In this document: piece by piece, positions 6,214 to 31,200 of the stretch
Layout of the letters: each line of letters opens with the position of its first letter
Position numbering within the stretch: position 1 is the stretch's first letter
IMG/VR virus record: IMGVR_UViG_2671180556_000014
Reading direction: 5' to 3' (one strand)
Length of the DNA: 31,500 nucleotides
DNA from: a virus
Lineage: Duplodnaviria > Heunggongvirae > Uroviricota > Caudoviricetes
The notes under the pieces: generated by a model
The model's input: only the letters and a program-made list of their open reading frames with translations
Databases searched by the model: none
What the model was told of the DNA's origin: nothing
Position numbers and translations under genes: made by a program

Positions 6214-6240
6214 ATCATAATAAAATTCACGGGGGAAAGT

Positions 6241-14322: not shown

Positions 14323-14421
14323 CAACCGAATGCGCCCCGCGCCAGGGCGGCACGCCGGTCAGTGAGGGTGACTCACCTGACGCTGTACCGGCGTCCACCG
14401 CCCGACTTTTCAGAGGTAGTC

Positions 14422-14931
14422 ATGATGACGCTGATTATTCCGCGAAAGGAGGCTCCCGTGTCCGGTGAGGGTACGGTGGTCATCCCGCAACCGGCAGGCG
14501 ACGAGCCGGTGATTAAAAACACGTTCTTTTTTCCCGATATCGACCCGAAGCGCGTCCGGGAACGTATGCGCCTTGAGCAGACCGTCGCCCCCGCCCGTCT
14601 GCGTGAGGCCATCAAGTCAGGCATGGCGGAGACGAATGCGGAGCTGTACGAGTACCGCGAACAGAAAATTGCCGCCGGTTTTACGCGTCTGGCGGAAGTC
14701 CCGGCGGACGACATCGACGGTGAAAGCATCAAAGTTTTTTACTACGAGCGCGCCGTGTGTGCGATGGCGACCGCATCGCTTTATGAGCGTTATCGCGGCG
14801 TGGATGCCAGTGCCAAAGGCGACAAGAAGGCCGACAGCATTGACAGCACCATTGATGAGCTGTGGCGGGATATGCGCTGGGCAGTGGCGCGCATCCAGGA
14901 CAAGCCGCGCTGCATTGTGAGTCAAATCTGA
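14422..14931 (+). CDS. L: Head completion/stabilisation protein L, 169 aa
   Basis: ATG at 14422 with GAGGTAG upstream gives 169 aa (P2 L length); ORF-track start at 14362 is an upstream extension. Confidence 0.8.
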   Translation: MMTLIIPRKEAPVSGEGTVVIPQPAGDEPVIKNTFFFPDIDPKRVRERMRLEQTVAPARLREAIKSGMAETNAELYEYREQKIAAGFTRLAEVPADDIDGESIKVFYYERAVCAMATASLYERYRGVDASAKGDKKADSIDSTIDELWRDMRWAVARIQDKPRCIVSQI

Positions 14932-15134
14932 TGAAGACCTTTGCGCTACAGGGCGACACGCTCGACGCCATCTGTGTCCGGTATTACGGGCGCACTGAGG
15001 GCGTGGTTGAGACCGTGCTCGCCGCAAATCCGGGACTGGCTGAACTGGGTGCGGTGCTGCCGCACGGCACCGCCGTCGAACTGCCCGACGTTCAGACCGC
15101 GCCCGTGGCTGAAACTGTCAATCTGTGGGAGTAA
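14931..15134 (+). CDS. X: Tail protein X (LysM-like), 67 aa
   Basis: ATG at 14931 overlaps the L stop (ATGA); MKTFALQGDTLDAICVRYYG... is 67 aa as for P2 X. Confidence 0.85.
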   Translation: MKTFALQGDTLDAICVRYYGRTEGVVETVLAANPGLAELGAVLPHGTAVELPDVQTAPVAETVNLWE

Positions 15135-15137
15135 CGC

Positions 15138-15419
15138 ATGACAGCAGAAGAAAAAAGCGTCCTGTCGCTTTTCATGATTGGGGTGCTGATTGTTGTCGGC
15201 AAGGTGCTTGCCGGTGGTGAACCCATCACCCCGCGTCTGTTTATCGGGCGCATGTTGCTCGGTGGTTTTGTCTCGATGGTTGCCGGTGTTGTTCTGGTGC
15301 AGTTTCCTGACCTGTCACTGCCTGCGGTGTGCGGCATCGGCTCCATGCTGGGTATCGCCGGTTATCAGGTGATTGAGATTGCCATTCAGCGCCGCTTTAA
15401 GGGCAGGGGGAAACAGTAA
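15138..15419 (+). CDS. Y: Holin Y, 93 aa
   Basis: Small protein with hydrophobic transmembrane segments and charged C-terminus; directly upstream of endolysin; P2 Y length. Confidence 0.8.
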   Translation: MTAEEKSVLSLFMIGVLIVVGKVLAGGEPITPRLFIGRMLLGGFVSMVAGVVLVQFPDLSLPAVCGIGSMLGIAGYQVIEIAIQRRFKGRGKQ

Positions 15420-15916
15420 TGCCGGTAATTAAAACACATCAGAATATCGCCGCCTTTCTCGACATGCTGGCCGTGTCCGAAGGGACGGCGAATCATCCGC
15501 TGACGAAAAACCGGGGCTATGACGTGATAGTCACCGGACTGGACGGGAAGCCGGAAATTTTCACCGACTACAGTGACCACCCGTTCGCGCATGGCCGACC
15601 GGCGAAGGTGTTTAACCGTCGCGGTGAAAAATCCACGGCCTCCGGTCGCTATCAGCAGCTTTACCTGTTCTGGCCGCATTACCGCAAACAGCTTGCCCTG
15701 CCGGATTTCAGTCCGTTGTCACAGGACAGACTTGCCATTCAGTTGATCCGCGAACGCGGTGCACTGGATGACATCCGGGCGGGACGCATTGAGCGCGCCA
15801 TTTCACGCTGTCGCAATATCTGGGCGTCCCTGCCGGGTGCCGGTTACGGTCAGCGTGAGCATTCACTGGAAAAACTGGTCACCGTCTGGCGTACCGCTGG
15901 CGGCGTACCGGCTTAA
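15419..15916 (+). CDS. K: Endolysin K (lysozyme-like), 165 aa
   Basis: Start overlaps holin stop (TAATG); length identical to P2 K; lysis cassette position. Confidence 0.85.
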   Translation: MPVIKTHQNIAAFLDMLAVSEGTANHPLTKNRGYDVIVTGLDGKPEIFTDYSDHPFAHGRPAKVFNRRGEKSTASGRYQQLYLFWPHYRKQLALPDFSPLSQDRLAIQLIRERGALDDIRAGRIERAISRCRNIWASLPGAGYGQREHSLEKLVTVWRTAGGVPA

Positions 15917-15930
15917 ACGGAGTAAACACC

Positions 15931-16356
15931 ATGAAGAAATTATCCCTTTCACTGATGCTGAACGTGTCGCTGGCGCTGATGCTGGCACTGTCCCTGATTT
16001 ACCCGCAGAGCGTGGCCGTCAGTTTTGTCGCCACCTGGGCGATTCTGGCGACGGTTATCTGTGTGGTTGCCGGTGGTGTCGGGGTGTATGCCACTGAGTA
16101 TGTGCTGGAACGCTACGGGCGGGAGCTGCCGCCGGAATCGCTGGCTGTGAAGATTGTCACGTCGCTGTTTTTGCAGCCGGTGACGTGGTGCAGACGGGCG
16201 GTGGGTCTGGTGGTGATGGTGGCGACGTTTATCTCGCTGGTCGCTGCCGGGTGGATTTTTACCGCACTGATTTATCTCGTGGCATCGCTGTTTTTCCGGC
16301 TGATACGTACGGCCTGCCGTCAGCGTCTTGAGGGGCGGGAACTATGTCAAAACTGA
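15931..16356 (+). CDS. lysA: Lysis timing protein LysA (membrane protein), 141 aa
   Basis: Highly hydrophobic multi-TM sequence; length and position match P2 lysA. Confidence 0.75.
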   Translation: MKKLSLSLMLNVSLALMLALSLIYPQSVAVSFVATWAILATVICVVAGGVGVYATEYVLERYGRELPPESLAVKIVTSLFLQPVTWCRRAVGLVVMVATFISLVAAGWIFTALIYLVASLFFRLIRTACRQRLEGRELCQN

Positions 16357-16769
16357 TGACTGTGCTGGTTGTGTTGTTATCACTGGCGGTGGCGGGGCTG
16401 TTTCTGGTGAAGCATGAAAATGCCAGCCTGCGCGCCTCGCTGGACAGGGCGAACAACGTCGCCAGTGAACAGCAGACGACCATCACCATGCTGAAAAATC
16501 AGCTTCATGTTGCCATCACCAGGGCAGACAAAAACGAGCTGGCGCAGGTGGCACTGCGTCAGGAACTGGAGAACGCCGCGAAGCGTGAAGCACAGCGCGA
16601 GAAAACCATCACGAGGTTACTCAATGAAAACGAAGATTTTCGCCGCTGGTACGGTGCTGACCTGCCTGATGCTGTGCGCCGGTTGCACCAGCGCCCGGCC
16701 TGCGCAGACGCCAGTGATTGTCCACAACGCCTGCCCGAAAGTGAGTCTTTGCCCGATGCCGGGCAGTGA
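16344..16769 (+). CDS. lysB: Inner-membrane spanin LysB (Rz-like), 141 aa
   Basis: N-terminal TM segment then coiled-coil-like periplasmic domain; overlaps lysA end; P2 lysB length. Confidence 0.75.
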   Translation: MSKLMTVLVVLLSLAVAGLFLVKHENASLRASLDRANNVASEQQTTITMLKNQLHVAITRADKNELAQVALRQELENAAKREAQREKTITRLLNENEDFRRWYGADLPDAVRRLHQRPACADASDCPQRLPESESLPDAGQ

Positions 16770-16914
16770 CCCGCAGAAGAACGGCGATTTAAGTGCCGAT
16801 ATCCGGCTGCTTGAGAACGCGCTGGCACGCTGTGCCAGCCAGGTAAAAATGATTAAACACTGTCAGGACGAAAACGATGCTCAAACCCGACAGCCTGCGC
16901 AGGGCGCTGACTGA
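16624..16914 (+). CDS. lysC: Outer-membrane lipoprotein spanin LysC (Rz1-like), 96 aa
   Basis: ATG at 16624 in the +1 frame inside lysB; signal peptide with lipobox-like LCAGC; extends past the lysB stop (overlapped spanin architecture). Confidence 0.65.
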   Translation: MKTKIFAAGTVLTCLMLCAGCTSARPAQTPVIVHNACPKVSLCPMPGSDPQKNGDLSADIRLLENALARCASQVKMIKHCQDENDAQTRQPAQGAD

Positions 16915-17344
16915 TGCCGTCACGGTGCTGAAAACCAGTCCCGAGATGCTGCGGATATTCGTGGATAACGGGAGTATTGCCTCCACGCTGGCGACGTCGC
17001 TGTCATTCGAAAAGCGTTACACGCTCAATGTCATTGTGACCGACTTTACCGGTGATTTTGACCTGCTCATCGTGCCGGTGCTGGCGTGGCTGCGGGAAAA
17101 TCAGCCCGACATCATGACCACCGACGAAGGCCAGAAAAAGGGATTCACGTTTTATGCAGACATCAACAATGACAGCAGCTTTGATATCAGCATCAGCCTG
17201 ATGCTGACCGAGCGCACGCTGGTCAGTGAGGTGGACGGCGCGCTGCATGTGAAGAATATCCCGGAACCCCCGCCGCCGGAGCCGGTCACCCGCCCGATGG
17301 AGCTTTATATCAATGGCGAACTGGTGAGCAAGTGGGATGAATGA
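16877..17344 (+). CDS. R: Tail completion protein R, 155 aa
   Basis: Length identical to P2 R; synteny after the lysis cassette. Confidence 0.8.
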   Translation: MLKPDSLRRALTDAVTVLKTSPEMLRIFVDNGSIASTLATSLSFEKRYTLNVIVTDFTGDFDLLIVPVLAWLRENQPDIMTTDEGQKKGFTFYADINNDSSFDISISLMLTERTLVSEVDGALHVKNIPEPPPPEPVTRPMELYINGELVSKWDE

Positions 17345-17789
17345 GTTTAAGCGTTTTGAAGACCGGCTGACCGGACTGATTGAGTCGCTGTCACCGTCAG
17401 GGCGTCGGCGACTGAGCGCCGAACTGGCAAAACGCCTGCGACAGAGTCAGCAGCGTCGGGTGATGGCTCAGAAAGCCCCGGACGGCACACCCTACGCGCC
17501 ACGCCAGCAGCAGAACGCCAGAAAAAAGACTGGTCGTGTTAAGCGAAAAATGTTTGCGAAACTTATCACCAGTCGTTTTTTGCATATCCGCGCCAGCCCG
17601 GAACAGGCATCAATGGAGTTTTACGGCGGGAAGTCACCGAAAATCGCCAGCGTGCATCAGTTCGGTCTGTCGGAAGAAACCCGGAAAGACGGTAAGAAAA
17701 TTGATTATCCGGCACGTCCTCTGCTCGGCTTTACCGGTGAGGATGTGCAGATGATTGAAGAGATTATTCTGGCTCACCTCGACCGTTAG
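17337..17789 (+). CDS. S: Tail completion protein S, 150 aa
   Basis: Length identical to P2 S; start overlaps R stop. Confidence 0.8.
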   Translation: MNEFKRFEDRLTGLIESLSPSGRRRLSAELAKRLRQSQQRRVMAQKAPDGTPYAPRQQQNARKKTGRVKRKMFAKLITSRFLHIRASPEQASMEFYGGKSPKIASVHQFGLSEETRKDGKKIDYPARPLLGFTGEDVQMIEEIILAHLDR

Positions 17790-17855
17790 TTGTGCCATTC
17801 CTGACACCTCATCGTCACATTGCCGCCGGTATGACCCGGCGGCATCCTTCCCGTT

Positions 17856-18491
17856 ATGAACACTCTCGCAAATATTCAGGAACTCGCGCGCGCACTGCGC
17901 AACATGATACGCCCCGGCATTATCGTCGAAACCGACCTTAATGCTGGTCGCTGCCGTGTGCAGACCGGCGGCATGTGCACCGACTGGCTTCAGTGGCTGA
18001 CCTGTCGTGCCGGGCGTTCGCGCACATGGTGGGCACCTTCCGTGGGGGAGCAGGTGCTGATTCTGGCCGTGGGCGGTGAACTTGACACGGCGTTTGTTCT
18101 GCCGGGGATTTATTCCGGCGATAACCCCGCGCCGTCTGCGTCGGCGGATGCCCTGCATATCCGTTTCCCTGACGGGGCGGTGATTGAGTATGAACCCGAA
18201 ACCAGTGCACTCACGGTAAGCGGAATTAAAACGGCCAGCGTGACGGCTTCTGATTCTGTTACTGCCACGGTGCCGGTGGTCACGGTGAAAGCATCAACCC
18301 GCGTCACCCTGGACACACCGGAGGTGGTCTGCACCAACAGGCTGATTACCGGCACGCTGGAAGTACAGAAGGGCGGGACGATGCGCGGCAACATTGAACA
18401 CACCGGCGGTGAACTCTCATCAAACGGTAAGGTACTGCATACCCATAAACACCCCGGCGACAGTGGCGGCACAACCGGGGGACCTCTATGA
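17856..18491 (+). CDS. V: Baseplate spike protein V, 211 aa
   Basis: Length identical to P2 V; first gene of baseplate operon after an intergenic region. Confidence 0.85.
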   Translation: MNTLANIQELARALRNMIRPGIIVETDLNAGRCRVQTGGMCTDWLQWLTCRAGRSRTWWAPSVGEQVLILAVGGELDTAFVLPGIYSGDNPAPSASADALHIRFPDGAVIEYEPETSALTVSGIKTASVTASDSVTATVPVVTVKASTRVTLDTPEVVCTNRLITGTLEVQKGGTMRGNIEHTGGELSSNGKVLHTHKHPGDSGGTTGGPL

Positions 18492-18835
18492 CTGCGCGTT
18501 ATCTCGGAATGAATCGCAGTGATGGCCTGACGGTCACTGACCTTGAGCATATCAGCCAGAGTATCGGCGATATCCTGCGCACACCGGTCGGCTCACGGGT
18601 GATGCGTCGTGATTACGGCTCGTTGCTGGCATCAATGATTGACCAGCCGCAGACCCCGGCGCTTGAGTTGCAGATTAAGGTCGCCTGTTACATGGCGGTG
18701 CTGAAATGGGAACCCCGCGTCACCCTGTCATCCGTCACCACGGCGCGCAGTTTTGACGGGCGAATGACGGTCACGTTAACCGGTCAGCACAACGACACCG
18801 GCCAGCCACTTTCGTTAACCATCCCTGTGAGTTGA
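18488..18835 (+). CDS. W: Baseplate protein W (gp25-like), 115 aa
   Basis: Length identical to P2 W; start overlaps V stop. Confidence 0.85.
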   Translation: MTARYLGMNRSDGLTVTDLEHISQSIGDILRTPVGSRVMRRDYGSLLASMIDQPQTPALELQIKVACYMAVLKWEPRVTLSSVTTARSFDGRMTVTLTGQHNDTGQPLSLTIPVS

Positions 18836-18839
18836 AACC

Positions 18840-19748
18840 ATGCCGATTATCGACCTGAACCAGCTACCTGCACCGGATGTGGTCGAGGAGCTGGACTTTG
18901 AAACCATTCTCACTGAACGCAAGGCGACACTGATTTCCCTTTACCCGGAAGACCAGCAGGAGGCGGTTGCCCGTACCCTGACGCTGGAATCCGAGCCTCT
19001 CGTCAAACTGCTGGAGGAAAATGCTTATCGTGAGCTTATCTGGCGTCAGCGTGTGAATGAGGCCGCACGGGCGGTGATGCTGGCCTGTGCCGCCGGTAAT
19101 GACCTTGATGTGATTGGTGCCAATTACAACACCACGCGCCTGATTATCACCCCGGCAGATGATTCGACCATTCCGCCGACACCGGCAGTGATGGAGTCTG
19201 ACACCGATTATCGTCTGCGTATTCAGCAGGCGTTTGAGGGCTTAAGCGTCGCCGGGTCGGTGGGAGCCTATCAGTATCATGGTCGCAGTGCTGACGGGCG
19301 TGTCGCGGATATTTCTGTCACCAGTCCGTCTCCGGCCTGCGTCACCATCTCTGTGCTGTCACGTGAAAATAACGGTGTTGCATCCGAAGACCTGCTGGCC
19401 GTGGTGCGTAACGCCCTTAATGGCGAGGACGTCAGGCCGGTGGCCGACCGCGTGACCGTGCAGTCTGCCGCCATCGTTGAATACCAGATAAACGCCACGC
19501 TTTACCTTTACCCTGGTCCCGAAAGCGAACCCATCCGCGCTGCTGCCGTGAAAAAACTGGAAGCGTACATCACGGCACAGCACCGGCTGGGGCGCGACAT
19601 CCGTCTGTCTGCCATTTATGCCGCTTTGCATGTGGAAGGCGTGCAGCGTGTCGAACTGGCTGCACCGCTGGACGATATCGTGCTTAACAGCACGCAGGCG
19701 TCTTTCTGTACCGAATACAGCGTCGTGACCGGAGGCTCGGATGAGTGA
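18840..19748 (+). CDS. J: Baseplate protein J, 302 aa
   Basis: Length identical to P2 J; synteny. Confidence 0.85.
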   Translation: MPIIDLNQLPAPDVVEELDFETILTERKATLISLYPEDQQEAVARTLTLESEPLVKLLEENAYRELIWRQRVNEAARAVMLACAAGNDLDVIGANYNTTRLIITPADDSTIPPTPAVMESDTDYRLRIQQAFEGLSVAGSVGAYQYHGRSADGRVADISVTSPSPACVTISVLSRENNGVASEDLLAVVRNALNGEDVRPVADRVTVQSAAIVEYQINATLYLYPGPESEPIRAAAVKKLEAYITAQHRLGRDIRLSAIYAALHVEGVQRVELAAPLDDIVLNSTQASFCTEYSVVTGGSDE

Positions 19749-20352
19749 TTCGCGCCTGCTGCCGACCGGCTCATCACCACTTGAAGTCGCCGCCGCAAAA
19801 GCCTGTGCGGAAATTGAAAAAACGCCGGTCAGTATTCGTGAGCTGTGGAACCCGGATACCTGTCCGGCAAATCTGCTGCCGTGGCTGGCGTGGTCATTTT
19901 CGGTCGACAGGTGGGATGATAAGTGGCCGGAAGCGACAAAACGCGCTGTTATCCGCGATGCGTATTTCATTCACTGCCATAAGGGCACTATTGGTGCGAT
20001 TCGCCGTGTGGTGGAGCCGCTCGGCTATCTGATTGAGGTGAGGGAGTGGTGGCAGCTCAACGAGGAGCCGGGGACGTTCCGCATCGTTGTTGGCGTGCTT
20101 GAGCAGGGTATTACCGAGGAAATGTATCAGGAGCTGGAGCGCCTCGTTGCTGATGCAAAACCGGCGAGCCGCCATCTGACGGGACTGGCTATCAGTTTAA
20201 GTACAACCGGCAACATTTTTGCCGGTGCGGGATGCTATCACGGTGACGCCCTGACGGTTTATCCCTACACCCCGGAGGCCATTATTGTCGGAGGGGATTA
20301 TTTCCCGGCCTCGGCCATTCATTTAATTGATAACCTGAGAGTAAACGCATGA
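19741..20352 (+). CDS. I: Baseplate/tail-fibre attachment protein I, 203 aa
   Basis: Synteny between J and H; start overlaps J stop and end overlaps H start. Confidence 0.8.
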
Positions 20353-21527
20353 CAGTGAAATACTACGCCATTCTGACTAATCAGGGCGCAGCACGGCTGG
20401 CTAACGCGACGATGCTCGGCAGTAAGCTGAATCTGACGCAAATGGCCGTTGGTGATGCGAATGGTGTCTTGCCGACACCAGACCCGGCACAGACAAAACT
20501 GATTAATCAGAAACGCATCGCGCCGCTGAATCTTCTGAGCGTTGATCCGAACAACCAGAGCCAGATTATTGCGGAGCAAATCATCCCTGAGAACGAGGGT
20601 GGATTCTGGATCCGTGAGATTGGGCTTTATGATGATGAAGGCGTACTCATTGCGGTGGCGAACTGCCCGGAAACGTACAAACCGCAGTTACAGGAAGGCA
20701 GTGGTCGTACCCAGACTATCCGCATGATTCTGGTTGTCACGAATACCGAAGCCATCACGCTGAAAATCGACCCGTCGGTGGTACTGGCGACCCGTAAATA
20801 CGTGGATGATGAAGTCCTGGAATTAAAGCTGTATGTGGATGACAAGATGGCAAAACATATTGCCGCACAGGATCCTCATACCCAGTATGCACAGAAACAT
20901 AATCCGACATTTACCGGAGAACCAAAAGCGCCGACGCCTGCCGCAGGAAATAACACCACGCGGATTGCGACCACTGCGTTTGTTCAGGACGCTATTACCG
21001 CTCTGATTAACGGTGCGCCAGCCACGCTGGACACACTGAAAGAAATTGCCGCAGCCATTAACAATGATCCGAAATTCAGCACCACCATTAACAATGCGCT
21101 GTCAGATAAGCAGCCACTGGATGAGACGCTGACTCATTTGAGTGGAAAGGATGTTGCCGGTCTTCTCGCATACCTTGGTTTGGGAGAAGCGGCTAAAAGG
21201 AATGTAGGGACAGGGGCGAATCAGCTACCTGATATGGGTAGCTTCACGCTTTCTGTTTCAGGTACTGGATATCAAAAATTACCATCAGGTTTTATTCTTC
21301 AGTGGGGCTCAATCGGCGCACCAGGCATTGCACAGGATGTAGTAACCCATTTCCCGATTGCATTTCCAAACAGATGTCTGCGTGTTTTGGTCTCACAAGA
21401 CTACACACCAGATAGCGGGGCTGTTGGTTATATTGCCTGTGCAGGTTTTAGTTCCGACCCGGTTAAATTTATATCCAGAGCCAGTACTCCTGGCCTCGGC
21501 GCTTCATTTTTAGCGTTAGGCTGTTAA
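20349..21527 (+). CDS. H: Tail fibre protein H: constant N-terminal part (aa 1-280) joined to variable C-terminal cassette Hv1 in the current orientation, 392 aa
   Basis: N-terminus and the NDPKF...SDKQP region resemble the P2 H / Mu S constant domain; the constant/variable junction at 21189 coincides with a 26-bp invertase crossover site. Confidence 0.85.
21163..21188. other. Invertase crossover site 1 (gix/hix-like, 26 bp) at H constant/variable junction
   Basis: TTCTCGCATACCTTGGTTTGGGAGAA: 12-bp half sites around a 2-bp core, resembling the Gin/Hin/Cin/Pin site pattern; identical in inverted orientation to 22999..23024. Confidence 0.6.
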
Positions 21528-21548
21528 TTTAGCTATATGGAGTGAAAA

Positions 21549-21989
21549 ATGAATTACATATATTCTGCGACTACAAACTCTTTCTATCCGCTGGAGATGA
21601 AAGAGGATTACACTCAAGCTGACTCATGGCCAGATGATGCTGTTGAAGTTGATGAGCAGGTGTATATTGAGTTTTCCGGATTACCGCCGGAAGGAAAAAT
21701 CCGTATCGCTGGAGAAAATGGTTTTCCTGCATGGTCTGAAATTCCACCACCAACGCATGAGGAACAGATTGCTGCAGCCGAATTGGAAAAGCAGCAATTG
21801 ATTAATCAGGCCAACGATTATATGAACAGTAAACAATGGCCTGGTAAAGCGGCGATTGGTCGTCTGAAAGGTGAGGAACTGGCGCAATATAATTTGTGGC
21901 TGGATTATCTGGACGCACTGGAGCTGGTCGATACGTCCAGTGCGCCAGATATTGAATGGCCTACGCCTCCGGCAGTTCAGGCCAGATGA
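21549..21989 (+). CDS. Tail fibre assembly chaperone (G/Tfa-like) paired with Hv1, 146 aa
   Basis: Immediately downstream of H; C-terminus (LWLDYLDALELVD...APDIEWPTPP) resembles tail fibre assembly proteins; convergent with a second tfa gene. Confidence 0.75.
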   Translation: MNYIYSATTNSFYPLEMKEDYTQADSWPDDAVEVDEQVYIEFSGLPPEGKIRIAGENGFPAWSEIPPPTHEEQIAAAELEKQQLINQANDYMNSKQWPGKAAIGRLKGEELAQYNLWLDYLDALELVDTSSAPDIEWPTPPAVQAR

Positions 21990-22554
21990 CGTCCGGCGCG
22001 GTGCTGGTATCTGTTGCCGTCACCGCGTCAATGTAATCCAGCACGGCGTTAAGTCGGGTTGTTTCTGCCTGAGTCAGTTTCCGTCCGGCCTGTAATTTCA
22101 GCTGAATCAGACTAATGGAAGCCATTGCTGCATCAATCAGTGACTGGCGCTGTGCTTCTGCTGCTTCTACTGCGGCGTTATGCTGTGCCTCAGTATCTGT
22201 CACCCATTTCTCACCATCCCATTTATCATATGGCGTTAACGGTGAAAGCGTGACATAACCGTTTTTGATGGCACCGATATAATCCACTGTAACAGCTGCG
22301 CCATTTTCTGTTGAGTAAACAGTCTCATTGCGATGGTCTTCTTCATGGCTCCATCCCTTACCCGTAAATACTGCCACTTTCCCCGGAATGTTTTCGCCCG
22401 GGTCAATACCAGTGGAACAGGCGGGCATACTTACGCCAGTATTAATATATTCATCAGACCAGCCCGTATACTCAGATGTTTCAGCATCATAATAAAAACA
22501 ACGCATATCGCCCGGCACTGTAGCCAGCCCATTTTCATCAAAAACAGGTTTCAT
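21961..22554 (-). CDS. Alternative tail fibre assembly chaperone (Tfa, paired with Hv2), 197 aa
   Basis: Minus-strand ORF convergent with and overlapping the 3' end of the plus-strand tfa; C-terminal motif (LNAVLDYIDAVT...APDVIWPELP) parallels the other tfa. Confidence 0.7.
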   Translation of the reverse strand: MKPVFDENGLATVPGDMRCFYYDAETSEYTGWSDEYINTGVSMPACSTGIDPGENIPGKVAVFTGKGWSHEEDHRNETVYSTENGAAVTVDYIGAIKNGYVTLSPLTPYDKWDGEKWVTDTEAQHNAAVEAAEAQRQSLIDAAMASISLIQLKLQAGRKLTQAETTRLNAVLDYIDAVTATDTSTAPDVIWPELPEA

Positions 22555-22996
22555 TATTTAGCCCTCACCAGAAAGTTAAATGCAATATTTCGCGGTCTGA
22601 CAGCAACAAAATTCACACCATCACCCACAGAGTTACTGGTGAAATTAAATCGTGAAAATCCTGGCTGATTTCCGGCGATGCCATCATGAAAGTTAATTGC
22701 GTGTCCCGCACCTTCGCCTATATTCCCGGCAAACTGAGAAAAGTTTGTAGCTGCCTGCCAGCTTAATAATTCGCGACCACCGTCTGCACCTCGCCCGTCA
22801 TCCCAGATACGAATGAAATCACCGCGGGCTTCAGGTAATACCAGCGAAGGAAACACTTTCGCCAGCACAGGATAATCAGTGGCAGAGAATTTCGCGCCGT
22901 TGAACTTCAAAAACACCATACTGGACCAGCTGTCGATTACAGTATTTGGCATTGCAGCGGACGGCCAGAAGAACGGAACGCCAATAGCTGGAGCAC
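22554..22996 (-). CDS. Alternative tail-fibre variable C-terminal cassette (Hv2), here fused in frame to an inverted partial copy of the H constant region
   Basis: Minus-strand coding sequence ending VRPRNIAFNFLVRAK, joined at 22997 to a reverse-complement copy of H codons 73-280; the ORF-track reading frame continues to 23531. Confidence 0.65.
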
Positions 22997-23623
22997 CTTC
23001 TCCCAAACCAAGGTATGCGAGAAGACCGGCAACATCCTTTCCACTCAAATGAGTCAGCGTCTCATCCAGTGGCTGCTTATCTGACAGCGCATTGTTAATG
23101 GTGGTGCTGAATTTCGGATCATTGTTAATGGCTGCGGCAATTTCTTTCAGTGTGTCCAGCGTGGCTGGCGCACCGTTAATCAGAGCGGTAATAGCGTCCT
23201 GAACAAACGCAGTGGTCGCAATCCGCGTGGTGTTATTTCCTGCGGCAGGCGTCGGCGCTTTTGGTTCTCCGGTAAATGTCGGATTATGTTTCTGTGCATA
23301 CTGGGTATGAGGATCCTGTGCGGCAATATGTTTTGCCATCTTGTCATCCACATACAGCTTTAATTCCAGGACTTCATCATCCACGTATTTACGGGTCGCC
23401 AGTACCACCGACGGGTCGATTTTCAGCGTGATGGCTTCGGTATTCGTGACAACCAGAATCATGCGGATAGTCTGGGTACGACCACTGCCTTCCTGTAACT
23501 GCGGTTTGTACGTTTCCGGGCAGTTCGCCACCGCAATGAGTACGCCTTCATCATCATAAAGCCCAATCTCACGGATCCAGAATCCACCCTCGTTCTCAGG
23601 GATGATTTGCTCCGCAATAATCT
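22997..23623 (-). repeat. 627-bp inverted duplicate of the H constant region (partner copy 20563..21189 on plus strand)
   Basis: Both ends checked by eye by reverse-complement comparison; translated sequence ANCPETY...LAYLGLGE is identical in both copies. Starts mid-codon with no recombination site at the 20563/23623 end. Confidence 0.8.
22999..23024. other. Invertase crossover site 2 (hybrid site: Hv2-side half plus H-constant-side half)
   Basis: TTCTCCCAAACCAAGGTATGCGAGAA, the reverse complement of site 1. Confidence 0.6.
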
Positions 23624-23624
23624 A

Positions 23625-24176
23625 CAGCCCGTATACTCAGATGTTTCAGCATCATAATAAAAACAACGCATATCGCCCGGCACTGTAGCCAGCCCATTTT
23701 CATCAAAAACAGGTTTCATTATTTAGCCCTCACCAGAAAGTTAAATGCAATATTTCGCGGTCTGACAGCAACAAAATTCACACCATCACCCACAGAGTTA
23801 CTGGTGAAATTAAATCGTGAAAATCCTGGCTGATTTCCGGCGATGCCATCATGAAAGTTAATTGCGTGTCCCGCACCTTCGCCTATATTCCCGGCAAACT
23901 GAGAAAAGTTTGTAGCTGCCTGCCAGCTTAATAATTCGCGACCACCGTCTGCACCTCGCCCGTCATCCCAGATACGAATGAAATCACCGCGGGCTTCAGG
24001 TAATACCAGCGAAGGAAACACTTTCGCCAGCACAGGATAATCAGTGGCAGAGAATTTCGCGCCGTTGAACTTCAAAAACACCATACTGGACCAGCTGTCG
24101 ATTACAGTATTTGGCATTGCAGCGGACGGCCAGAAGAACGGAACGCCAATAGCTGGAGCACCTTCTCCCAAACCAA
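23625..24176 (-). repeat. 552-bp direct duplicate of 22460..23011 (Hv2 cassette plus first 31 codons of the alternative tfa)
   Basis: Ends checked by eye; ORFs 23719..24216 and 23459..23719 encode proteins identical to Hv2 and to the first 31 aa of the 21961..22554 Tfa before diverging. Confidence 0.8.
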
Positions 24177-24188
24177 CGTTTATGAAAA
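24163..24188. other. Invertase crossover site 3 (native right-hand site next to invertase gene)
   Basis: TTCTCCCAAACCAACGTTTATGAAAA: same left half as site 2, right half from unique flank; 50 bp upstream of the invertase start. Confidence 0.6.
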
Positions 24189-24237
24189 TGCAGAGATAAC
24201 GGGCAACTGGCATCATCTCCGGTTTTTATTCAGGGGG

Positions 24238-24837
24238 ATGCTCATGCTTATTGGCTATGTACGCGTGTCAACAAATGACCAGAATACGGAATTGCAGCGT
24301 AACGCGCTGGAGTGCGCAGGATGTGAGCTGATTTTTGAGGACAAAATCAGCGGCACGAAGTCCGACAGGCCGGGACTGAAAAAACTGCTCAGGACATTAT
24401 CGGAGGGGGATACACTGGTAGTCTGGAAGCTGGACCGGCTGGGGCGTAGTATGCGGCATCTGGTCATTCTGGTTGAGGAGCTGCGCGAACGCGGCGTTAA
24501 TTTTCGCAGCCTGACGGATGCTATTGATACCAGCACGCCGATGGGGCGTTTTTTCTTTCATGTGATGGGTGCCCTGGCCGAAATGGAACGAGAACTCATT
24601 GTCGAGCGGACACGCGCCGGACTGGAAGCGGCCAGAGCCAAAGGTCGTATTGGTGGCAGACGTCCGAAACTCACCGCGAGTGAGTGGGAGCAGGCCGGGC
24701 GGTTGTTGGCTGCAGGGGAATCACGTCAACGCGTGGCACTGATTTTTGATATTGGCCTGTCCACGCTCTATAAAAAATTCCCCGCCTCCGTGACAAAAAA
24801 TAAATTGTGTCATCCCTTAGCCAACCGGGACAAATAG
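24238..24837 (+). CDS. Site-specific DNA invertase, serine recombinase (Gin/Hin/Cin/Pin family)
   Basis: N-terminus MLIGYVRVSTNDQ with catalytic serine, resolvase-type core and C-terminal HTH (LSTLYKKF); adjacent to the invertible tail-fibre segment. Start may be ATG 24238 or 24244. Confidence 0.9.
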   Translation: MLMLIGYVRVSTNDQNTELQRNALECAGCELIFEDKISGTKSDRPGLKKLLRTLSEGDTLVVWKLDRLGRSMRHLVILVEELRERGVNFRSLTDAIDTSTPMGRFFFHVMGALAEMERELIVERTRAGLEAARAKGRIGGRRPKLTASEWEQAGRLLAAGESRQRVALIFDIGLSTLYKKFPASVTKNKLCHPLANRDK

Positions 24838-24896
24838 CCTGACATCTCCGGCACAACTGAAAATATCACTCACCCATTAACCACGGAGTTAAACGG

Positions 24897-26087
24897 ATGA
24901 GTGACTATCATCACGGCGTGCAGGTGCTGGAGATTAACGACGGCACCCGCGTCATTTCCACCGTATCCACTGCCATTGTCGGCATGGTCTGCACGGCCAG
25001 CGATGCGGATGTCGAAACCTTCCCCCTCAATAAACCGGTACTGATTACCAATGTGCAGAGCGCAATTGCAAAGGCCGGTAAAAAAGGCACGCTGGCGGCA
25101 TCGTTGCAGGCCATCGCCGACCAGTCAAAACCGGTCACCGTTGTCGTGCGTGTGGAAGACGGCACCGGCGACGACGAGGAAACGAAACTCGCGCAGACCG
25201 TTTCCAATATCATCGGCACCACTGACGAAAACGGTCAGTACACCGGACTGAAAGCCCTGCTGGCGGCGGAGTCGGTAACCGGTGTTAAGCCGCGCATTCT
25301 CGGTGTGCCGGGACTGGACACCAAAGAGGTTGCCGTCGCACTGGCATCAGTCTGTCAGAAGCTGCGCGCTTTCGGGTATATCAGCGCATGGGGCTGTAAA
25401 ACCATTTCCGAGGTGAAAGCCTACCGCCAGAATTTCAGCCAGCGTGAGCTGATGGTCATCTGGCCGGATTTCCTCGCATGGGATACGGTTGCCAGTACCA
25501 CCGCCACCGCGTATGCCACCGCCCGTGCGCTGGGTCTGCGCGCTAAAATCGACCAGGAGCAGGGCTGGCATAAAACGCTGTCCAACGTCGGGGTAAACGG
25601 TGTTACCGGCATCAGCGCGTCCGTATTCTGGGATTTGCAGGAGTCCGGCACCGATGCTGACCTGCTTAACGAGTCTGGCGTCACAACGCTGATTCGCCGC
25701 GACGGTTTCCGCTTCTGGGGTAACCGTACCTGCTCTGATGACCCGCTGTTCCTCTTTGAAAACTACACCCGCACCGCGCAGGTGCTGGCCGACACGATGG
25801 CTGAGGCGCACATGTGGGCGGTGGACAAGCCCATCACTGCAACGCTGATTCGCGACATCGTTGACGGCATCAATGCCAAATTCCGTGAGCTGAAAACAAA
25901 CGGCTATATCGTGGATGCGACCTGCTGGTTCAGCGAAGAATCCAACGATGCGGAAACCCTCAAGGCCGGAAAACTGTATATCGACTACGACTATACACCG
26001 GTGCCTCCTCTTGAAAACCTGACCCTGCGCCAGCGTATTACCGATAAATACCTCGCAAATCTGGTCACCTCGGTTAACAGCAATTAA
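24897..26087 (+). CDS. FI: Tail sheath protein FI, 396 aa
   Basis: Length identical to P2 FI; GGAG upstream; followed by the tube gene. Confidence 0.9.
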   Translation: MSDYHHGVQVLEINDGTRVISTVSTAIVGMVCTASDADVETFPLNKPVLITNVQSAIAKAGKKGTLAASLQAIADQSKPVTVVVRVEDGTGDDEETKLAQTVSNIIGTTDENGQYTGLKALLAAESVTGVKPRILGVPGLDTKEVAVALASVCQKLRAFGYISAWGCKTISEVKAYRQNFSQRELMVIWPDFLAWDTVASTTATAYATARALGLRAKIDQEQGWHKTLSNVGVNGVTGISASVFWDLQESGTDADLLNESGVTTLIRRDGFRFWGNRTCSDDPLFLFENYTRTAQVLADTMAEAHMWAVDKPITATLIRDIVDGINAKFRELKTNGYIVDATCWFSEESNDAETLKAGKLYIDYDYTPVPPLENLTLRQRITDKYLANLVTSVNSN

Positions 26088-26099
26088 GGAGCCTGACCG

Positions 26100-26618
26100 A
26101 TGGCAATGCCGCGCAAACTCAAGTTAATGAACGTCTTTCTGAACGGCTACAGCTATCAGGGCGTTGCAAAGTCCGTCACGCTGCCAAAACTGACCCGTAA
26201 GCTCGAAAACTATCGCGGTGCGGGGATGAACGGCAGCGCACCGGTAGACCTCGGCCTTGATGACGATGCGCTGTCAATGGAGTGGTCGCTCGGGGGCTTC
26301 CCGGATTCGGTTATCTGGGAGCTTTACGCCGCAACCGGCGTGGATGCCGTGCCGATTCGTTTTGCAGGCTCTTACCAGCGCGACGATACCGGCGAAACGG
26401 TGGCCGTCGAAGTGGTCATGCGTGGCCGTCAGAAAGAAATCGACACCGGTGAGGGTAAACAGGGAGAAGACACCGAGTCGAAAATCTCCGTGGTCTGCAC
26501 CTATTTCCGGCTGACGATGGACGGTAAGGAGCTGGTCGAAATTGACACCATCAACATGATTGAGAAGGTGAACGGCGTCGACCGGCTGGAGCAACACCGC
26601 CGCAATATCGGCCTGTGA
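26100..26618 (+). CDS. FII: Tail tube protein FII, 172 aa
   Basis: Length identical to P2 FII; synteny. Confidence 0.9.
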   Translation: MAMPRKLKLMNVFLNGYSYQGVAKSVTLPKLTRKLENYRGAGMNGSAPVDLGLDDDALSMEWSLGGFPDSVIWELYAATGVDAVPIRFAGSYQRDDTGETVAVEVVMRGRQKEIDTGEGKQGEDTESKISVVCTYFRLTMDGKELVEIDTINMIEKVNGVDRLEQHRRNIGL

Positions 26619-26675
26619 TTTTCATCCGGTCAGCCAGGCTGACCGGTTAACCCCCGATTCAGAAGTGAGAAAACC

Positions 26676-26951
26676 ATGAACAAAGAAAATGTCATTACCC
26701 TGGAAAATCCGGTCAAACGTGGTGAGCAGGTTATCGAACAGGTCACGCTGATGAAACCCAATGCCGGGACGCTGCGCGGTGTCAGTCTGGCTGCGGTTGC
26801 AAACTCCGAAGTCGATGCACTGATTAAGGTGCTGCCGCGCATGACGGCACCGATGCTGACCGAGCAGGAGGTCGCCGCGCTGGAACTGCCTGACCTTGTG
26901 GCGCTGGCCGGTAAGGTGGTCGGTTTTTTGTCGCCGAACTCGGTGCAGTGA
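26676..26951 (+). CDS. E: Tail assembly chaperone E, 91 aa
   Basis: Length identical to P2 E; lies directly upstream of tape measure gene; contains a slippery heptamer near its 3' end. Confidence 0.8.
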   Translation: MNKENVITLENPVKRGEQVIEQVTLMKPNAGTLRGVSLAAVANSEVDALIKVLPRMTAPMLTEQEVAALELPDLVALAGKVVGFLSPNSVQ

Positions 26952-27103
26952 CGTTTCCGAAAAATCTCTCGGTCGATGACCTGATGGCGGATGTGGCAGT
27001 GATATTTCACTGGCCGCCATCAGAACTATATCCCATGAGCCTGACCGAACTCATCACATGGCGCGAAAAGGCGCTCCGGCGAAGCGGAAACACGAATGAG
27101 TAA
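26676..27103 (+). CDS. E': E+E' tail assembly chaperone made by programmed -1 frameshift (slip at 26924..26930)
   Basis: Heptamer T TTT TTG in the E zero frame; the -1 frame is open from there to TAA at 27101..27103, overlapping the T start; analogous to lambda G/GT and P2 E/E'. Confidence 0.55.
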
Positions 27104-29543
27104 CAATGTAAAATTACAGGTATTGCTCAGGGCTGTTGACCAGGCATCCCGCCCGTTTAAATCCATCCGCACAGCGAGCAAATCGCTGTCGGGGGATATC
27201 CGGGAAACACAAAAATCACTGCGCGAGCTGAACGGTCAGGCATCCCGTATTGAGGGATTTCGCAAGACCAGTGCACAGCTCGCCGTGACTGGTCAGGAAC
27301 TGAAAAAAGCCAGACAGGAAGCCGCAGCTCTGGCTGTCCAGTTTAAAAATACTGAACGACCGACAAATGCACAGGCAAAGGCAATGGAAGCCGCGCGTAA
27401 AAATGCGTCTGAGTTACAGGCGAAATATAACAGCCTGAGATTGTCGGTACAGCGCCAGCGTCAGGAGTTAAGTCAGGTGGGTATTAATACCCGTAATCTG
27501 GCGCATGATGAACGAGGGCTGAAAAACCGTATCAGTGAAACCACCGCACAGCTTAACCGTCAGCGTGACGCGCTGGCGCGTGTCAGTGCGCAACAGGCAA
27601 AACTTAATGCAGTAAAACAGCGTTATCAGGCCGGAAAGGAACTGGCCGGAAATATGGCCTCAGTGGGCGCTGCCGGTGTGGGGATTGCTGCTGCGGGAAC
27701 GATGGCCGGAGTTAAGTTGCTGATGCCCGGTTATGAGTTTGCGCAGAAAAACTCAGAATTGCAGGCTGTGCTCGGAGTGGCAAAAGACTCCGCCGAAATG
27801 ACCGCACTACGCAAACAGGCGCGCCAGCTCGGCGACAATACCGCCGCCTCGGCGGATGATGCGGCCGGTGCACAGATAATCATCGCGAAAGCGGGTGGGG
27901 ATGTTGATGCCATTCAGGCGGCAACGCCGGTCACGCTGAATATGGCGCTGGCGAACCGCCGCACGATGGAAGAAAACGCCGCCCTGCTGATGGGGATGAA
28001 ATCCGCCTTTCAGCTTTCAAACGATAAGGTCGCTCATATCGGGGATGTTCTCTCCATGACGATGAACAAAACCGCCGCCGATTTTGACGGCATGAGTGAT
28101 GCGCTGACCTATGCCGCACCTGTGGCAAAAAATGCCGGTGTCAGCATTGAAGAAACCGCCGCAATGGTCGGGGCGCTGCATGATGCAAAAATCACAGGCT
28201 CAATGGCGGGGACGGGAAGCCGTGCCGTGTTAAGCCGCCTGCAGGCACCGACGGGAAAAGCATGGGATGCACTCAAAGAGCTTGGAGTGAAAACCTCAGA
28301 CAGCAAAGGAAACACCCGGCCAATATTTACCATTCTGAAAGAAATGCAGGCCAGTTTTGAGAAAAACCGGCTCGGTACTGCCCAGCAGGCTGAATACATG
28401 AAAACCATTTTCGGGGAGGAGGCCAGCTCAGCCGCCGCTGTGCTGATGACTGCCGCCTCAACCGGAAAGCTGGACAAACTGACCGCTGCGTTTAAAGCCT
28501 CAGACGGGAAGACCGCAGAGCTGGTAAATATCATGCAGGACAACCTCGGCGGTGACTTTAAGGAGTTTCAGTCCGCTTATGAGGCGGTGGGGACTGACCT
28601 GTTTGACCAGCAGGAAGGCGCACTGCGTAATCTCACGCAGACGGCCACAAAGTATGTGTTAAAACTCGACGGCTGGATCCAGAAAAACAAATCACTGGCG
28701 TCAACCATCGGCATCATTGTCGGTGGTGCACTGGCACTGATTGGTGTCATCGGTGCCATTGGCCTCGTAGCCTGGCCGGTTATCACCGGCATCAATGCCA
28801 TCATCGCGGCAGCAGGCGCAATGGGGGCAGTCTTCACGACGGTTGGCAGTGCTGTTATGACCGCCATCGGGGCTATTAGCTGGCCGGTTGTGGCCGTGGT
28901 GGCCGCCATTGTCGCCGGGGCGTTGCTTATCCGTAAATACTGGGAGCCTGTCAGCGCATTCTTTGGCGGTGTGGTGGAAGGGCTGAAAGCGGCATTTGCG
29001 CCGGTGGGGGAACTGTTCACGCCACTTAAACCGGTGTTTGACTGGCTGGGTGAAAAGTTACAGGCCGCGTGGCAGTGGTTTAAAAACCTGATTGCCCCGG
29101 TCAAAGCCACCCGGGACACCCTGAACCGTTGCCGTGACACGGGCGTCATGTTCGGGCAGGCACTGGCTGACGCGCTGATGCTGCCGCTTAATGCGTTCAA
29201 CAAACTGCGCAGTGGTATTGACTGGGTACTGGAAAAACTCGGTGTTATCAACAAAGAGTCAGACACACTTGACCAGACCGCCGCCAGAACTCAAGCCGCC
29301 ACGTATGGCAGCGGTGGTTATATTCCGGCGACCAGCTCTTATACAGGCTATCAGGCTTATCAGCCGGTCACGGCACCGGCTGGCCGCTCTTATGTAGACC
29401 AGAGTAAAAACGAATATCACATCAGCCTGACGGGTGGTACTGCGCCGGGGACACAGCTTGACCGCCAGTTACAGGATGCGCTCGAAAAATACGAGCGGGA
29501 TAAACGTGCGCGCGCCCGTGCCAGCATGATGCATGACGGTTAA
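27096..29543 (+). CDS. T: Tail tape measure protein T, 815 aa
   Basis: Length identical to P2 T; long helical N-terminus and glycine/alanine-rich hydrophobic segment typical of tape measure proteins. Confidence 0.9.
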   Translation: MSNNVKLQVLLRAVDQASRPFKSIRTASKSLSGDIRETQKSLRELNGQASRIEGFRKTSAQLAVTGQELKKARQEAAALAVQFKNTERPTNAQAKAMEAARKNASELQAKYNSLRLSVQRQRQELSQVGINTRNLAHDERGLKNRISETTAQLNRQRDALARVSAQQAKLNAVKQRYQAGKELAGNMASVGAAGVGIAAAGTMAGVKLLMPGYEFAQKNSELQAVLGVAKDSAEMTALRKQARQLGDNTAASADDAAGAQIIIAKAGGDVDAIQAATPVTLNMALANRRTMEENAALLMGMKSAFQLSNDKVAHIGDVLSMTMNKTAADFDGMSDALTYAAPVAKNAGVSIEETAAMVGALHDAKITGSMAGTGSRAVLSRLQAPTGKAWDALKELGVKTSDSKGNTRPIFTILKEMQASFEKNRLGTAQQAEYMKTIFGEEASSAAAVLMTAASTGKLDKLTAAFKASDGKTAELVNIMQDNLGGDFKEFQSAYEAVGTDLFDQQEGALRNLTQTATKYVLKLDGWIQKNKSLASTIGIIVGGALALIGVIGAIGLVAWPVITGINAIIAAAGAMGAVFTTVGSAVMTAIGAISWPVVAVVAAIVAGALLIRKYWEPVSAFFGGVVEGLKAAFAPVGELFTPLKPVFDWLGEKLQAAWQWFKNLIAPVKATRDTLNRCRDTGVMFGQALADALMLPLNAFNKLRSGIDWVLEKLGVINKESDTLDQTAARTQAATYGSGGYIPATSSYTGYQAYQPVTAPAGRSYVDQSKNEYHISLTGGTAPGTQLDRQLQDALEKYERDKRARARASMMHDG

Positions 29544-29557
29544 GGAGGTGACGAAAA

Positions 29558-30037
29558 ATGATGCTCGCGTTAGGTATGTTTGTTTTTATGCGCCAGACGC
29601 TGCCACACCAGACCATGCAGCGTGAATCAGATTATCGCTGGCCGTCAAATTCCCGTATCGGTAAACGGGACGCTTTTCAGTTTCTCGGTGTGGGTGAGGA
29701 AAACATCACGCTTGCCGGTGTGCTTTATCCCGAACTGACCGGCGGCAAGCTGACGATGACCACGCTCAGGCTGATGGCAGAGGAGGGGCGGGCGTGGCCG
29801 TTGCTGGATGGCACCGGCATGATTTACGGCATGTATGTCATCAGCAAGGTGAGTGAAACAGGGAGTATTTTCTTTGCAGACGGCACACCCCGGAAAATTG
29901 ATTTTACGCTGTCGCTCACCCGCGTTGATGAATCACTGGCCGCGCTTTATGGCGATATCGGTAAACAGGCGGAATCGCTCATCGGTAAGGCTGGCAGTAT
30001 GGCGACTAAATTCACGGGTATGACGGGGGCGGGATAA
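29558..30037 (+). CDS. U: Tail protein U, 159 aa
   Basis: Length identical to P2 U; AAGGAGGTG Shine-Dalgarno; synteny. Confidence 0.85.
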   Translation: MMLALGMFVFMRQTLPHQTMQRESDYRWPSNSRIGKRDAFQFLGVGEENITLAGVLYPELTGGKLTMTTLRLMAEEGRAWPLLDGTGMIYGMYVISKVSETGSIFFADGTPRKIDFTLSLTRVDESLAALYGDIGKQAESLIGKAGSMATKFTGMTGAG

Positions 30038-31200
30038 TGCTGGATGCACTGACATTTGATGCAGGCAGTACGCTGACGCCGGATTACATGCTGATGCTCG
30101 ACAGCAGGGATATTACCGGCAATATCAGCGACCGTCTGATGAGCATGACCCTGACGGATAACCGGGGCTTTGAGGCTGACCAGCTTGATATTGAACTGAA
30201 CGATGCCGACGGGCAGGTCGGACTACCGATTCGTGGCGCTGTCCTGACGGTGTATATCGGCTGGAAAGGTTTTGCCCTGGTATGCAAAGGGAAATTTACC
30301 GTTGATGAGGTTGAACACCGGGGCGCACCGGATGTGGTCACCATCCGCGCCCGGAGTGCAGATTTTCGCGGGACGCTCAATTCCCGCCGTGAAGGCTCAT
30401 GGCATGACACCACGCTCGGTGCGATTGTTGAGGCGATAGCCTCCCGTAACAGGCTGGAAGCCAGTGTCGCTCCGTCACTGGCCGGAATTAAAATCCCGCA
30501 CATCGACCAGTCGCAGGAGTCTGATGCGAAATTCCTGACCCGTCTTGCAGAACGCAACGGCGGTGAGGTGTCGGTAAAAATGGGAAAATTGTTGTTTCTC
30601 AAAGCGGGGCAGGGGATGACGGCCAGCGGTAAAAAAATCCCGCAGATTACCATCACCCGCAGCGACGGCGACCGTCATCATTTTGCGATTGCTGACCGTG
30701 GAGCTTACACCGGCGTAACGGCAAAGTGGTTACACACCAAAGACCCGAAGCCGCAAAAGCAGAAGGTAAAACTGAAACGCAAAAAGAAAGAAAAACACCT
30801 GCGCGCACTGGAGCACCCGAAAGCGAAACCGGTCAGGCAGAAGAAAGCGCCTAAAGTACCGGAAGCGCGCGAAGGTGAATACATGGCCGGTGAGGCTGAT
30901 AACGTTTTTGCCCTGACCACGGTATATGCCACAAAAGCGCAGGCCATGCGTGCCGCTCAGGCAAAGTGGGATAAACTGCAACGGGGCGTTGCGGAGTTCT
31001 CCATCATCCTGGCTACCGGTCGTGCAGATATTTACACGGAAACACCGGTCAGAGTGTCAGGCTTTAAGCGCGTCATAGACGAGCAGGACTGGACAATCAC
31101 TAAGGTGACACATTTTCTGAATAATAGCGGCTTCACGACGTCCTTAGAGCTTGAGGTCAGGCTTTCTGATGTGGAGTACGAAACAGAAGATTATGAGTGA
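30037..31200 (+). CDS. D: Tail protein D (late control gene D product), 387 aa
   Basis: Length identical to P2 D; start overlaps U stop; last structural gene before ogr. Confidence 0.9.
   Translation: MLDALTFDAGSTLTPDYMLMLDSRDITGNISDRLMSMTLTDNRGFEADQLDIELNDADGQVGLPIRGAVLTVYIGWKGFALVCKGKFTVDEVEHRGAPDVVTIRARSADFRGTLNSRREGSWHDTTLGAIVEAIASRNRLEASVAPSLAGIKIPHIDQSQESDAKFLTRLAERNGGEVSVKMGKLLFLKAGQGMTASGKKIPQITITRSDGDRHHFAIADRGAYTGVTAKWLHTKDPKPQKQKVKLKRKKKEKHLRALEHPKAKPVRQKKAPKVPEAREGEYMAGEADNVFALTTVYATKAQAMRAAQAKWDKLQRGVAEFSIILATGRADIYTETPVRVSGFKRVIDEQDWTITKVTHFLNNSGFTTSLELEVRLSDVEYETEDYE

Follow-up and report, generated by a model that had tools for sequence, protein, structure and literature searches.

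Invertible tail-fibre segments of the Gin/Cin/Pin/Hin class (the G segment of Mu, the C segment of P1, the P segment of e14, and their P2-like counterparts) combine an invertase and its crossover sites with a constant fibre N-terminus and paired cassettes with their chaperones, and clonal E. coli cultures contain P2-like prophage segments in both orientations side by side (PMC4272514). Multi-site inversion systems, such as Min of p15B and the three-site P2-like locus of EPEC E2348/69 (PMC4272514), have each of their sites bordering a distinct cassette. Separately, work on draft assembly has described how joining contigs by read pairs produces gaps of N, which GapFiller extends base by base from both edges and closes only when the two extensions overlap; SSPACE and GapFiller have both been termed greedy algorithms, whose assumptions can give false joins (PMC5320598, PMC3446322).

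Here we analyzed a 31,500-nucleotide stretch of DNA (the window) from a P2-like prophage, running from integrase to ogr. Its tail-fibre region follows the canonical layout of an invertible segment—H constant part, s1, Hv1, tfa, reversed tfa2, reversed Hv2, s3, and invertase (Table 1)—and a first-pass annotation made from the letters alone had already placed H, tfa, the alternative tfa, the Hv2 cassette, and a serine invertase where we find them. The two Caudo_TAP genes lie on opposite strands, the Hv2 copy at 23719-24216 matches tail-fibre C-terminal PHROGs, and the exact 392-aa H protein is present on the deposited contig CYCQ01000002.1, where the invertase is annotated as 197 aa. The invertase scores well against both of its Pfam families (PF00239, E 2e-52; PF02796, E 6e-13), and residues 3-184 match the Mu Gin structures 3UJ3 and 4M6F at E about 1e-94. 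Against PADLOC and Pfam, the low-GC cargo genes gave no matches.

Each of the two inverted 26-bp sites is built from half-sites of imperfect dyad symmetry, and the central dinucleotide is the same in both: s1 consists of two 12-bp half-sites flanking the dinucleotide at 21175-21176, and the reverse complement of s3 (TTTTCATAAACG-TT-GGTTTGGGAGAA) carries the same right half-site and central TT as s1. A small serine recombinase (Resolvase plus C-terminal HTH) adjoins the segment, with the constant H N-terminus outside and the oppositely oriented C-termini and their cognate chaperones inside. Both H fusions are open, H-Hv1 as 392 aa and the simulated flipped H-Hv2 as an intact ORF of 427 aa. At base, this P2-like E. 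coli prophage carries an ordinary invertible tail-fibre segment of the Gin/Cin/Pin type, a real and already known switch that looks functional.

Table 1. Features of the invertible tail-fibre locus and of its extra block (window coordinates).
Feature	Position	Strand	Description
Tail-fibre gene H (constant N-terminal part + Hv1 C-terminal cassette)	20349..21527	+	392 aa; Pfam Phage_tail_fib E 2e-62, Gp53-like_C
Left arm of inverted repeat	20563..21189	+	Taken as true copy: H constant part (codons 73-280) + crossover site s1
Crossover site s1	21163..21188	+	26 bp: TTCTCGCATACC TT GGTTTGGGAGAA; inverted-repeat partner of s3
tfa, tail-fibre assembly chaperone for Hv1	21549..21989	+	Pfam Caudo_TAP E 1.9e-38
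tfa2, alternative tail-fibre assembly chaperone for Hv2	21961..22554	-	Pfam Caudo_TAP E 5.9e-28
Direct-repeat copy 1	22460..23011	-	552 bp: tfa2 first 31 codons + Hv2 cassette + inner half-site with central AA
Hybrid site s2	22998..23023	-	H constant part/Hv2 junction, exists only in flipped orientation
Probably spurious reverse-complement H constant part	23012..23623	-	Remainder of right inverted-repeat arm 22997-23623
Scaffold gap	23624..23624	.	N in GCA_001284525.1 CYCQ01000002.1
Direct-repeat copy 2	23625..24176	-	552 bp: tfa2 codons 1-31 + Hv2 cassette
Crossover site s3	24163..24188	+	TTCTCCCAAACC AA CGTTTATGAAAA; inverted vs. s1
Serine DNA invertase, Gin/Cin/Hin/Pin family	24244..24837	+	Pfam Resolvase + HTH_7

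Within this layout sits an extra block. Self-comparison of the window recovered both repeats that the first-pass annotation had described, an inverted repeat exact over 627 bp (20563-21189 vs. 22997-23623; 632 bp with one mismatch allowed) and a direct repeat exact over 552 bp (22460-23011 vs. 23625-24176, offset 1165), the two repeat blocks being separated by one base, 23624. Just beyond both repeats identity is at background level, and the repeats are therefore far beyond chance. Copy 1 of the direct repeat stops precisely at the crossover point, at 23011, and calling either copy the spurious one is an arbitrary choice. The annotation had also read a hybrid crossover site as the junction expected from inversion, and positions 22998-23023 match the predicted product exactly; its remark that the outer ends of the extra block lie away from recombination sites was likewise correct.

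We next asked how much of the window is accounted for by the two simulated orientations of a one-copy locus, defining orientation A as the window minus 22460-23624, and orientation B as A with the stretch from the s1 to the s3 central dinucleotide inverted. All 31-, 51-, 101-, and 151-mers of the window are found in A or B, except where they span 23624. When reverse-complemented, 22460-23623 forms a single contiguous 1164-bp piece of orientation B, hybrid site s2 is identical to the simulated inversion product, and junctions of both orientations are present within the CYCQ01000002.1 record. Apart from the adjacency at 23624, the sequence is thus wholly explained by two alleles present in the sample.

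The deposited record bears directly on that one base. The window and contig CYCQ01000002.1 of NCBI draft GCA_001284525.1 agree at all compared bases (window 14349-31500) but one: at 23624 the window has A and the record (position 171509) has N, a difference that the first-pass annotation had no way of seeing and that is the sole mismatch in two overlapping comparisons (13,179 and 11,464 bases). The novel adjacency was deposited as N, without called sequence, and because 23624 is N in the record, the sole adjacency explained by neither orientation is a scaffold gap and not sequenced DNA; an N could in principle stand for an ambiguous base call instead. At the 23623/23625 junction no microhomology is visible that could account for a join, be it by a de Bruijn graph or by recombination. 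Rendering the N as a real base in the window conceals the one clue that exposes the artefact.

Comparison with other genomes places the extra block in this record only. Related complete genomes carry a one-copy locus, exactly 1165 bp shorter, in either orientation: 56 complete E. coli genomes have the flipped-state H/Hv2 junction as contiguous sequence (e.g., HB-Coli0, which carries a one-copy flipped locus), and the unflipped state occurs in others. A 5-kb window query covers only about 3.8 kb in two compared genomes, and once the extra block is removed, tfa2 and the invertase lie exactly as far apart as in the complete genomes. The block itself was found in no complete genome searched. An exact 30-mer of the novel junction had no occurrence in IMG/VR, the GTDB species representatives, or the JGI metagenomes, and a megablast search of 5,426 complete E. 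coli genomes and 50,697 phage records with the 201-bp junction gave no contiguous match. An exact-protein look-up of the two junction ORFs (86 aa and 325 aa) across 153 billion gene positions returned nothing beyond the source record, the 325-aa one (22554-23531) being a truncated ORF made by the reversed H copy. None of the independent assemblies searched reproduces the structure. Independent short-read assemblies of near-identical prophages break at this locus, and one independent Logan contig starts 30 nt, exactly k-1, ahead of the first base past the s3 crossover centre.

Collectively, these findings strongly favor a chimeric assembly, because the only junction that is not an inversion junction is an N, the rest is explained by two orientations, and the structure is shared with no other assembly. 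We therefore read the extra block, with a probability of roughly 0.9, as a draft-assembly artefact from DNA holding both orientations of the switch; this was the explanation listed first by the first-pass annotation (a chimera from an orientation-mixed population), and the isolate DNA was most likely mixed for segment orientation. From the N alone we infer that a scaffolder and a gap-filler were used for GCA_001284525.1; a search for papers citing this accession, made for its assembly method, found none. Both orientations would have been represented, among cells or among phage genomes, in the DNA sequenced from the isolate. A left contig that stopped at the segment end and a right contig starting on the invertase side would then have been joined correctly by read pairs with an N gap between them, and both contig edges presumably extended into a gap that did not exist. 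At the left edge, flipped-state reads would have carried the sequence from Hv2 through the hybrid site into the H constant part (23012-23623), while at the right edge unflipped-state reads would have carried it from s3 through Hv2 into tfa2 (24176 down to 23625). Because these extensions differ in sequence, they would never have overlapped, leaving a single residual N at 23624 and an outcome of 1165 spurious bases that create the 627-bp inverted and 552-bp direct repeats. It counts against this account that the positions at which the extensions stop (H codon 73 and tfa2 codon 31) are explained only as lying about one insert length from the sites.

The strongest case for a genuine structure invokes two steps, a non-homologous 1165-bp tandem duplication in the flipped state (starting at H codon 73, crossing the site and Hv2, and reaching tfa2 codon 31), followed by invertase-mediated inversion between s1 and s3. 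Denoting 20349-20562 as a, 20563-21189 as b, 21190-22459 as c, 22460-23011 as d, 23624 as x, and the sequence from 24177 as e, with primes for reverse complements, the window reads a b c d b' x d e, and s1/s3 inversion yields a [b d' x'] [b d'] c' e, a clean tandem duplication. The first-pass annotation, whose alternative was a real duplication with its 627-bp inverted repeat open to RecA-mediated inversion, overlooked that the genuine version reduces to this one duplication plus one ordinary inversion. A single illegitimate event would then explain the geometry, H-Hv1 and its tfa remain intact in the window, and tandem duplications are the commonest spontaneous rearrangement; the crossover site would have been duplicated along with the rest, giving a prophage with three sites and several isomers. 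Against this, the duplication junction falls on the one N position, where reads would have crossed a real junction and closed it, and no other assembly searched has the structure. Short-read assemblers, moreover, collapse real repeats of 550-630 bp and do not resolve them. We dropped this scenario as the best explanation when the junction base turned out to be N, which removed the only support for the annotation's alternative, and we now consider it quite unlikely.

Other routes to the same sequence fare worse still. Sites s2 and s3 are direct repeats, so that a deletion from one to the other would give back the canonical locus, and the reverse reaction—integration by the invertase of a 1165-bp one-site circle at s3—is formally possible; a replication template switch between sister molecules in opposite orientations might have a similar result. 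Such a circle would itself require the unsupported b'-x-d junction, which is the N, and Gin-family invertases strongly prefer to invert the DNA between two inverted sites of one molecule. With no second occurrence of the structure found, we regard either event as very improbable. The extra block might alternatively come from a chimeric molecule or read that arose in library preparation and entered the consensus, instead of from a gap-filling error, since a non-homologous junction with inverted sequence resembles amplification chimeras. A chimeric read would, however, have left a defined base at the junction and not an N, and more than 550 bp lies on each side of the junction, far longer than a short read; the chance of this origin also seems very slight to us.

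The extra block is almost certainly not a real feature, and the switch is the textbook host-range flip-flop documented in P2-like E. coli prophages. The biological significance is small, and the practical value lies in caution: when a culture is mixed for orientation, gap filling can inflate invertible segments in draft scaffolds, with the result that spurious long repeats, both inverted and direct, appear together with false truncated tail-fibre ORFs (325 aa and 86 aa in this case) and what looks like a third recombination site. Were the arrangement real, it would show a prophage caught as its Gin-type switch passes from two sites to a three-site multiple-inversion system, its 627-bp inverted repeat additionally permitting RecA-driven flipping, and would offer a small, neat example of multi-site inversion systems arising by crossover-site duplication.

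Set beside known systems, the window as written resembles Min of p15B and the three-site locus of EPEC E2348/69 in having s1, s2, and s3. Unlike the sites of those systems, however, its third site is flanked by exact copies and attached through an N, and we accordingly do not count the locus among multiple-inversion systems. The likeness to gap-filling misassemblies of short-read drafts (PMC5320598, PMC3446322) is closer, in that the only novel adjacency coincides with a single N, each flank of the N validly continues one of two coexisting alleles, and the locus is inflated with its repeats duplicated, the attribution to such tools in the case of GCA_001284525.1 being one that we infer. As in P2-like segments, for which coexistence in culture is documented (PMC4272514), the same locus occurs in either orientation across many complete genomes. 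With the segments of Mu, P1, e14, and their P2-like counterparts the locus shares invertase, sites, constant N-terminus, and paired cassettes with chaperones, and once the 1165 probably spurious bases are removed, no difference from them is left.

A P2-like (Peduovirus-type) prophage, with integrase at one end and ogr at the other, makes up the window. The repeats that the first-pass annotation had reported in its tail-fibre segment were found exactly where it placed them: an inverted repeat (20563-21189 vs. 22997-23623), exact over 627 bp or 632 bp with one mismatch allowed, and a direct repeat (22460-23011 vs. 23625-24176), exact over 552 bp with an offset of 1165. Just beyond both repeats identity is at background level, and a single base, 23624, lies between the right inverted-repeat arm and the second direct-repeat copy. 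With blocks named as in the table (prime denotes reverse complement), the order in the window is a b c d b' x d e. Three 26-bp crossover sites are present in the window, the direct-repeat ends (23011, 24176) coincide precisely with the site's central dinucleotide, and the site previously described as hybrid (s2) is exactly the product expected from inversion.

Features of the prophage and blocks of its tail-fibre segment (window positions)
Feature	Position	Strand	Description
Integrase	1-996	-	one prophage end
Low-GC island ORF	6241-6921	+	226 aa
Low-GC island ORF	7241-8182	-	313 aa
H (tail fibre)	20349-21527		Phage_tail_fib + Gp53-like_C
tfa	21549-21989		Caudo_TAP chaperone
tfa2	21961-22554		second Caudo_TAP, strand opposite to first
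Hv2		-	alternative tail-fibre C-terminal cassette
Serine recombinase	24244-24837		Resolvase + HTH_7
s1	21163-21188		TTCTCGCATACC-TT-GGTTTGGGAGAA
s2	22998-23023		hybrid site, identical to predicted post-inversion junction
s3	24163-24188		reverse complement TTTTCATAAACG-TT-GGTTTGGGAGAA
Block a	20349-20562		
Block b	20563-21189		
Block c	21190-22459		
Block d	22460-23011		
Block x	23624		
Block e	24177 onward		

An exact-protein look-up located the same H protein in NCBI assembly GCA_001284525.1, on contig CYCQ01000002.1 (261,928 bp), whose gene order is that of the window, including odd minus-strand ORFs of 325 aa and 164 aa. Two stretches of this contig (13,179 and 11,464 bases compared) each differ from the window at one position and are otherwise identical: window 23624 is 'A', whereas the public record has 'N' (record position 171509). 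The only novel adjacency therefore corresponds to no determined sequence: 23624 is a gap placeholder joining two scaffolded contigs. Window preparation seems to have converted ambiguity codes to a real base; an N shown as 'A' conceals scaffold gaps from a sequence-only reader.

We then simulated orientation A (the window minus 22460-23624) and orientation B (A with the segment from the s1 to the s3 central dinucleotide inverted). All window k-mers of length 31, 51, 101 and 151 are found in A or B, except those spanning 23624. Unflipped A accounts for junctions b-c and d-e and flipped B for d-b', leaving b'-x-d as the sole new junction; reverse-complemented, 22460-23623 is a single contiguous 1164-bp piece of B. 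In B, H and Hv2 fuse into an intact ORF of 427 aa. The 30-mer at the novel junction has no match in IMG/VR, GTDB species representatives or JGI metagenomes, and none of 5,426 complete E. coli genomes or 50,697 phage records contains its 201-bp neighbourhood as contiguous sequence. Exact-protein look-ups found no entry for the 86-aa junction ORF and placed the 325-aa truncated H'-Hv2 ORF in this record only.

Complete E. coli genomes usually carry, in this order, H, tfa, tfa (minus strand), a partial tail-fibre cassette (minus strand), recombinase and sheath; a 5-kb query from the window stretches over only about 3.8 kb in them, and no complete E. coli genome was found to carry the extra block. 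Once 22460-23624 is deleted, the tfa2-to-invertase spacing equals that of complete-genome loci to the base, and 56 complete E. coli genomes have the flipped-state junction d-b' as contiguous sequence. E. coli HB-Coli0 has a one-copy locus in the flipped state; its H is annotated there (NZ_CP020933.1, locus L013, 3695-4978) as two pseudogene fragments, one without the N-terminus and the other without the C-terminus, which a frameshift in the fused gene or the way it was annotated might explain.

The extra block is thus almost certainly not a real feature: the N at 23624, the remaining k-mers accounted for by A and B, and the unique junction support the chimeric assembly from a mixed-orientation population that the first-pass annotation had listed first. 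The isolate DNA would have contained both orientations, and such mixtures have been recorded in clonal E. coli cultures for segments of P2-like prophages (PMC4272514). Read pairs would have correctly joined two contigs with N in between; a greedy gap closer may then have grown the left edge with flipped-state reads, from Hv2 through the hybrid site and on into the H constant part in reverse (612 bp beyond the crossover), and the right edge with unflipped-state reads, from s3 back via Hv2 into tfa2 (552 bp). Because the two extensions are unrelated sequences, they would never overlap, and the N would persist. Such gap-edge behaviour has been described for SSPACE/GapFiller pipelines (PMC5320598, PMC3446322).

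A genuine tandem duplication followed by inversion would be a simpler real route, overlooked in the earlier annotation. Inverted from s1 to s3, the window becomes a [b d' x'][b d'] c' e, which in the flipped state is simply a tandem duplication of 1165 bp, so a real origin would need only one illegitimate event and one normal inversion. This route fits the geometry, but it predicts a sequenced junction where the record has N, and we regard it as improbable. Site-specific integration of a one-site circle, a template switch and a chimeric read each merit next to no credence.

In independent short-read assemblies, contigs from near-identical prophages break off at s3 or right next to it, with starts at window coordinates 24147 (L011, Logan ERR1301263), 24247 (L010) and 24345 (L012). 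The first of these starts exactly 30 nt (k-1 for k = 31) ahead of the base that follows the s3 crossover centre, which would fit a branch of the assembly graph at the crossover in this sample as well, arising from mixed orientation or a second Hv2 copy.

Elsewhere in the prophage, a low-GC island (6000-8200; GC 0.32-0.41 vs. about 0.55 in the phage backbone) is flanked by replication gene A and the portal gene, the position of the P2 tin/old cargo hotspot. Its two ORFs have no match in Pfam or PADLOC and match only unknown-function PHROGs (phrog_20483, phrog_5937); CP195580.1 has equal-length ORFs at this position, and the island is a possible candidate for uncharacterised anti-phage cargo. 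In CYCQ01000002.1 (locus L009, 11783-21164), the prophage end at ogr adjoins pflB, focA, ycaO, serC and aroA, and the chromosome is therefore of E. coli type.

An identical 146-aa tfa with its Hv1 cassette is common to P2-like, Mu-like and other myovirus-type prophages (loci L015-L024), illustrating cassette exchange among invertible tail-fibre segments, and two assembly pairs (L016 vs. L017, L018 vs. L019) show opposite orientations of the same locus. Other prophage types carry this cassette in both orientations, in every case unduplicated and with one invertase. The serine recombinase matches the Mu Gin structures 3UJ3 and 4M6F (E about 1e-94), and the underlying switch is a known Gin-type invertible tail-fibre segment in a P2-like prophage.
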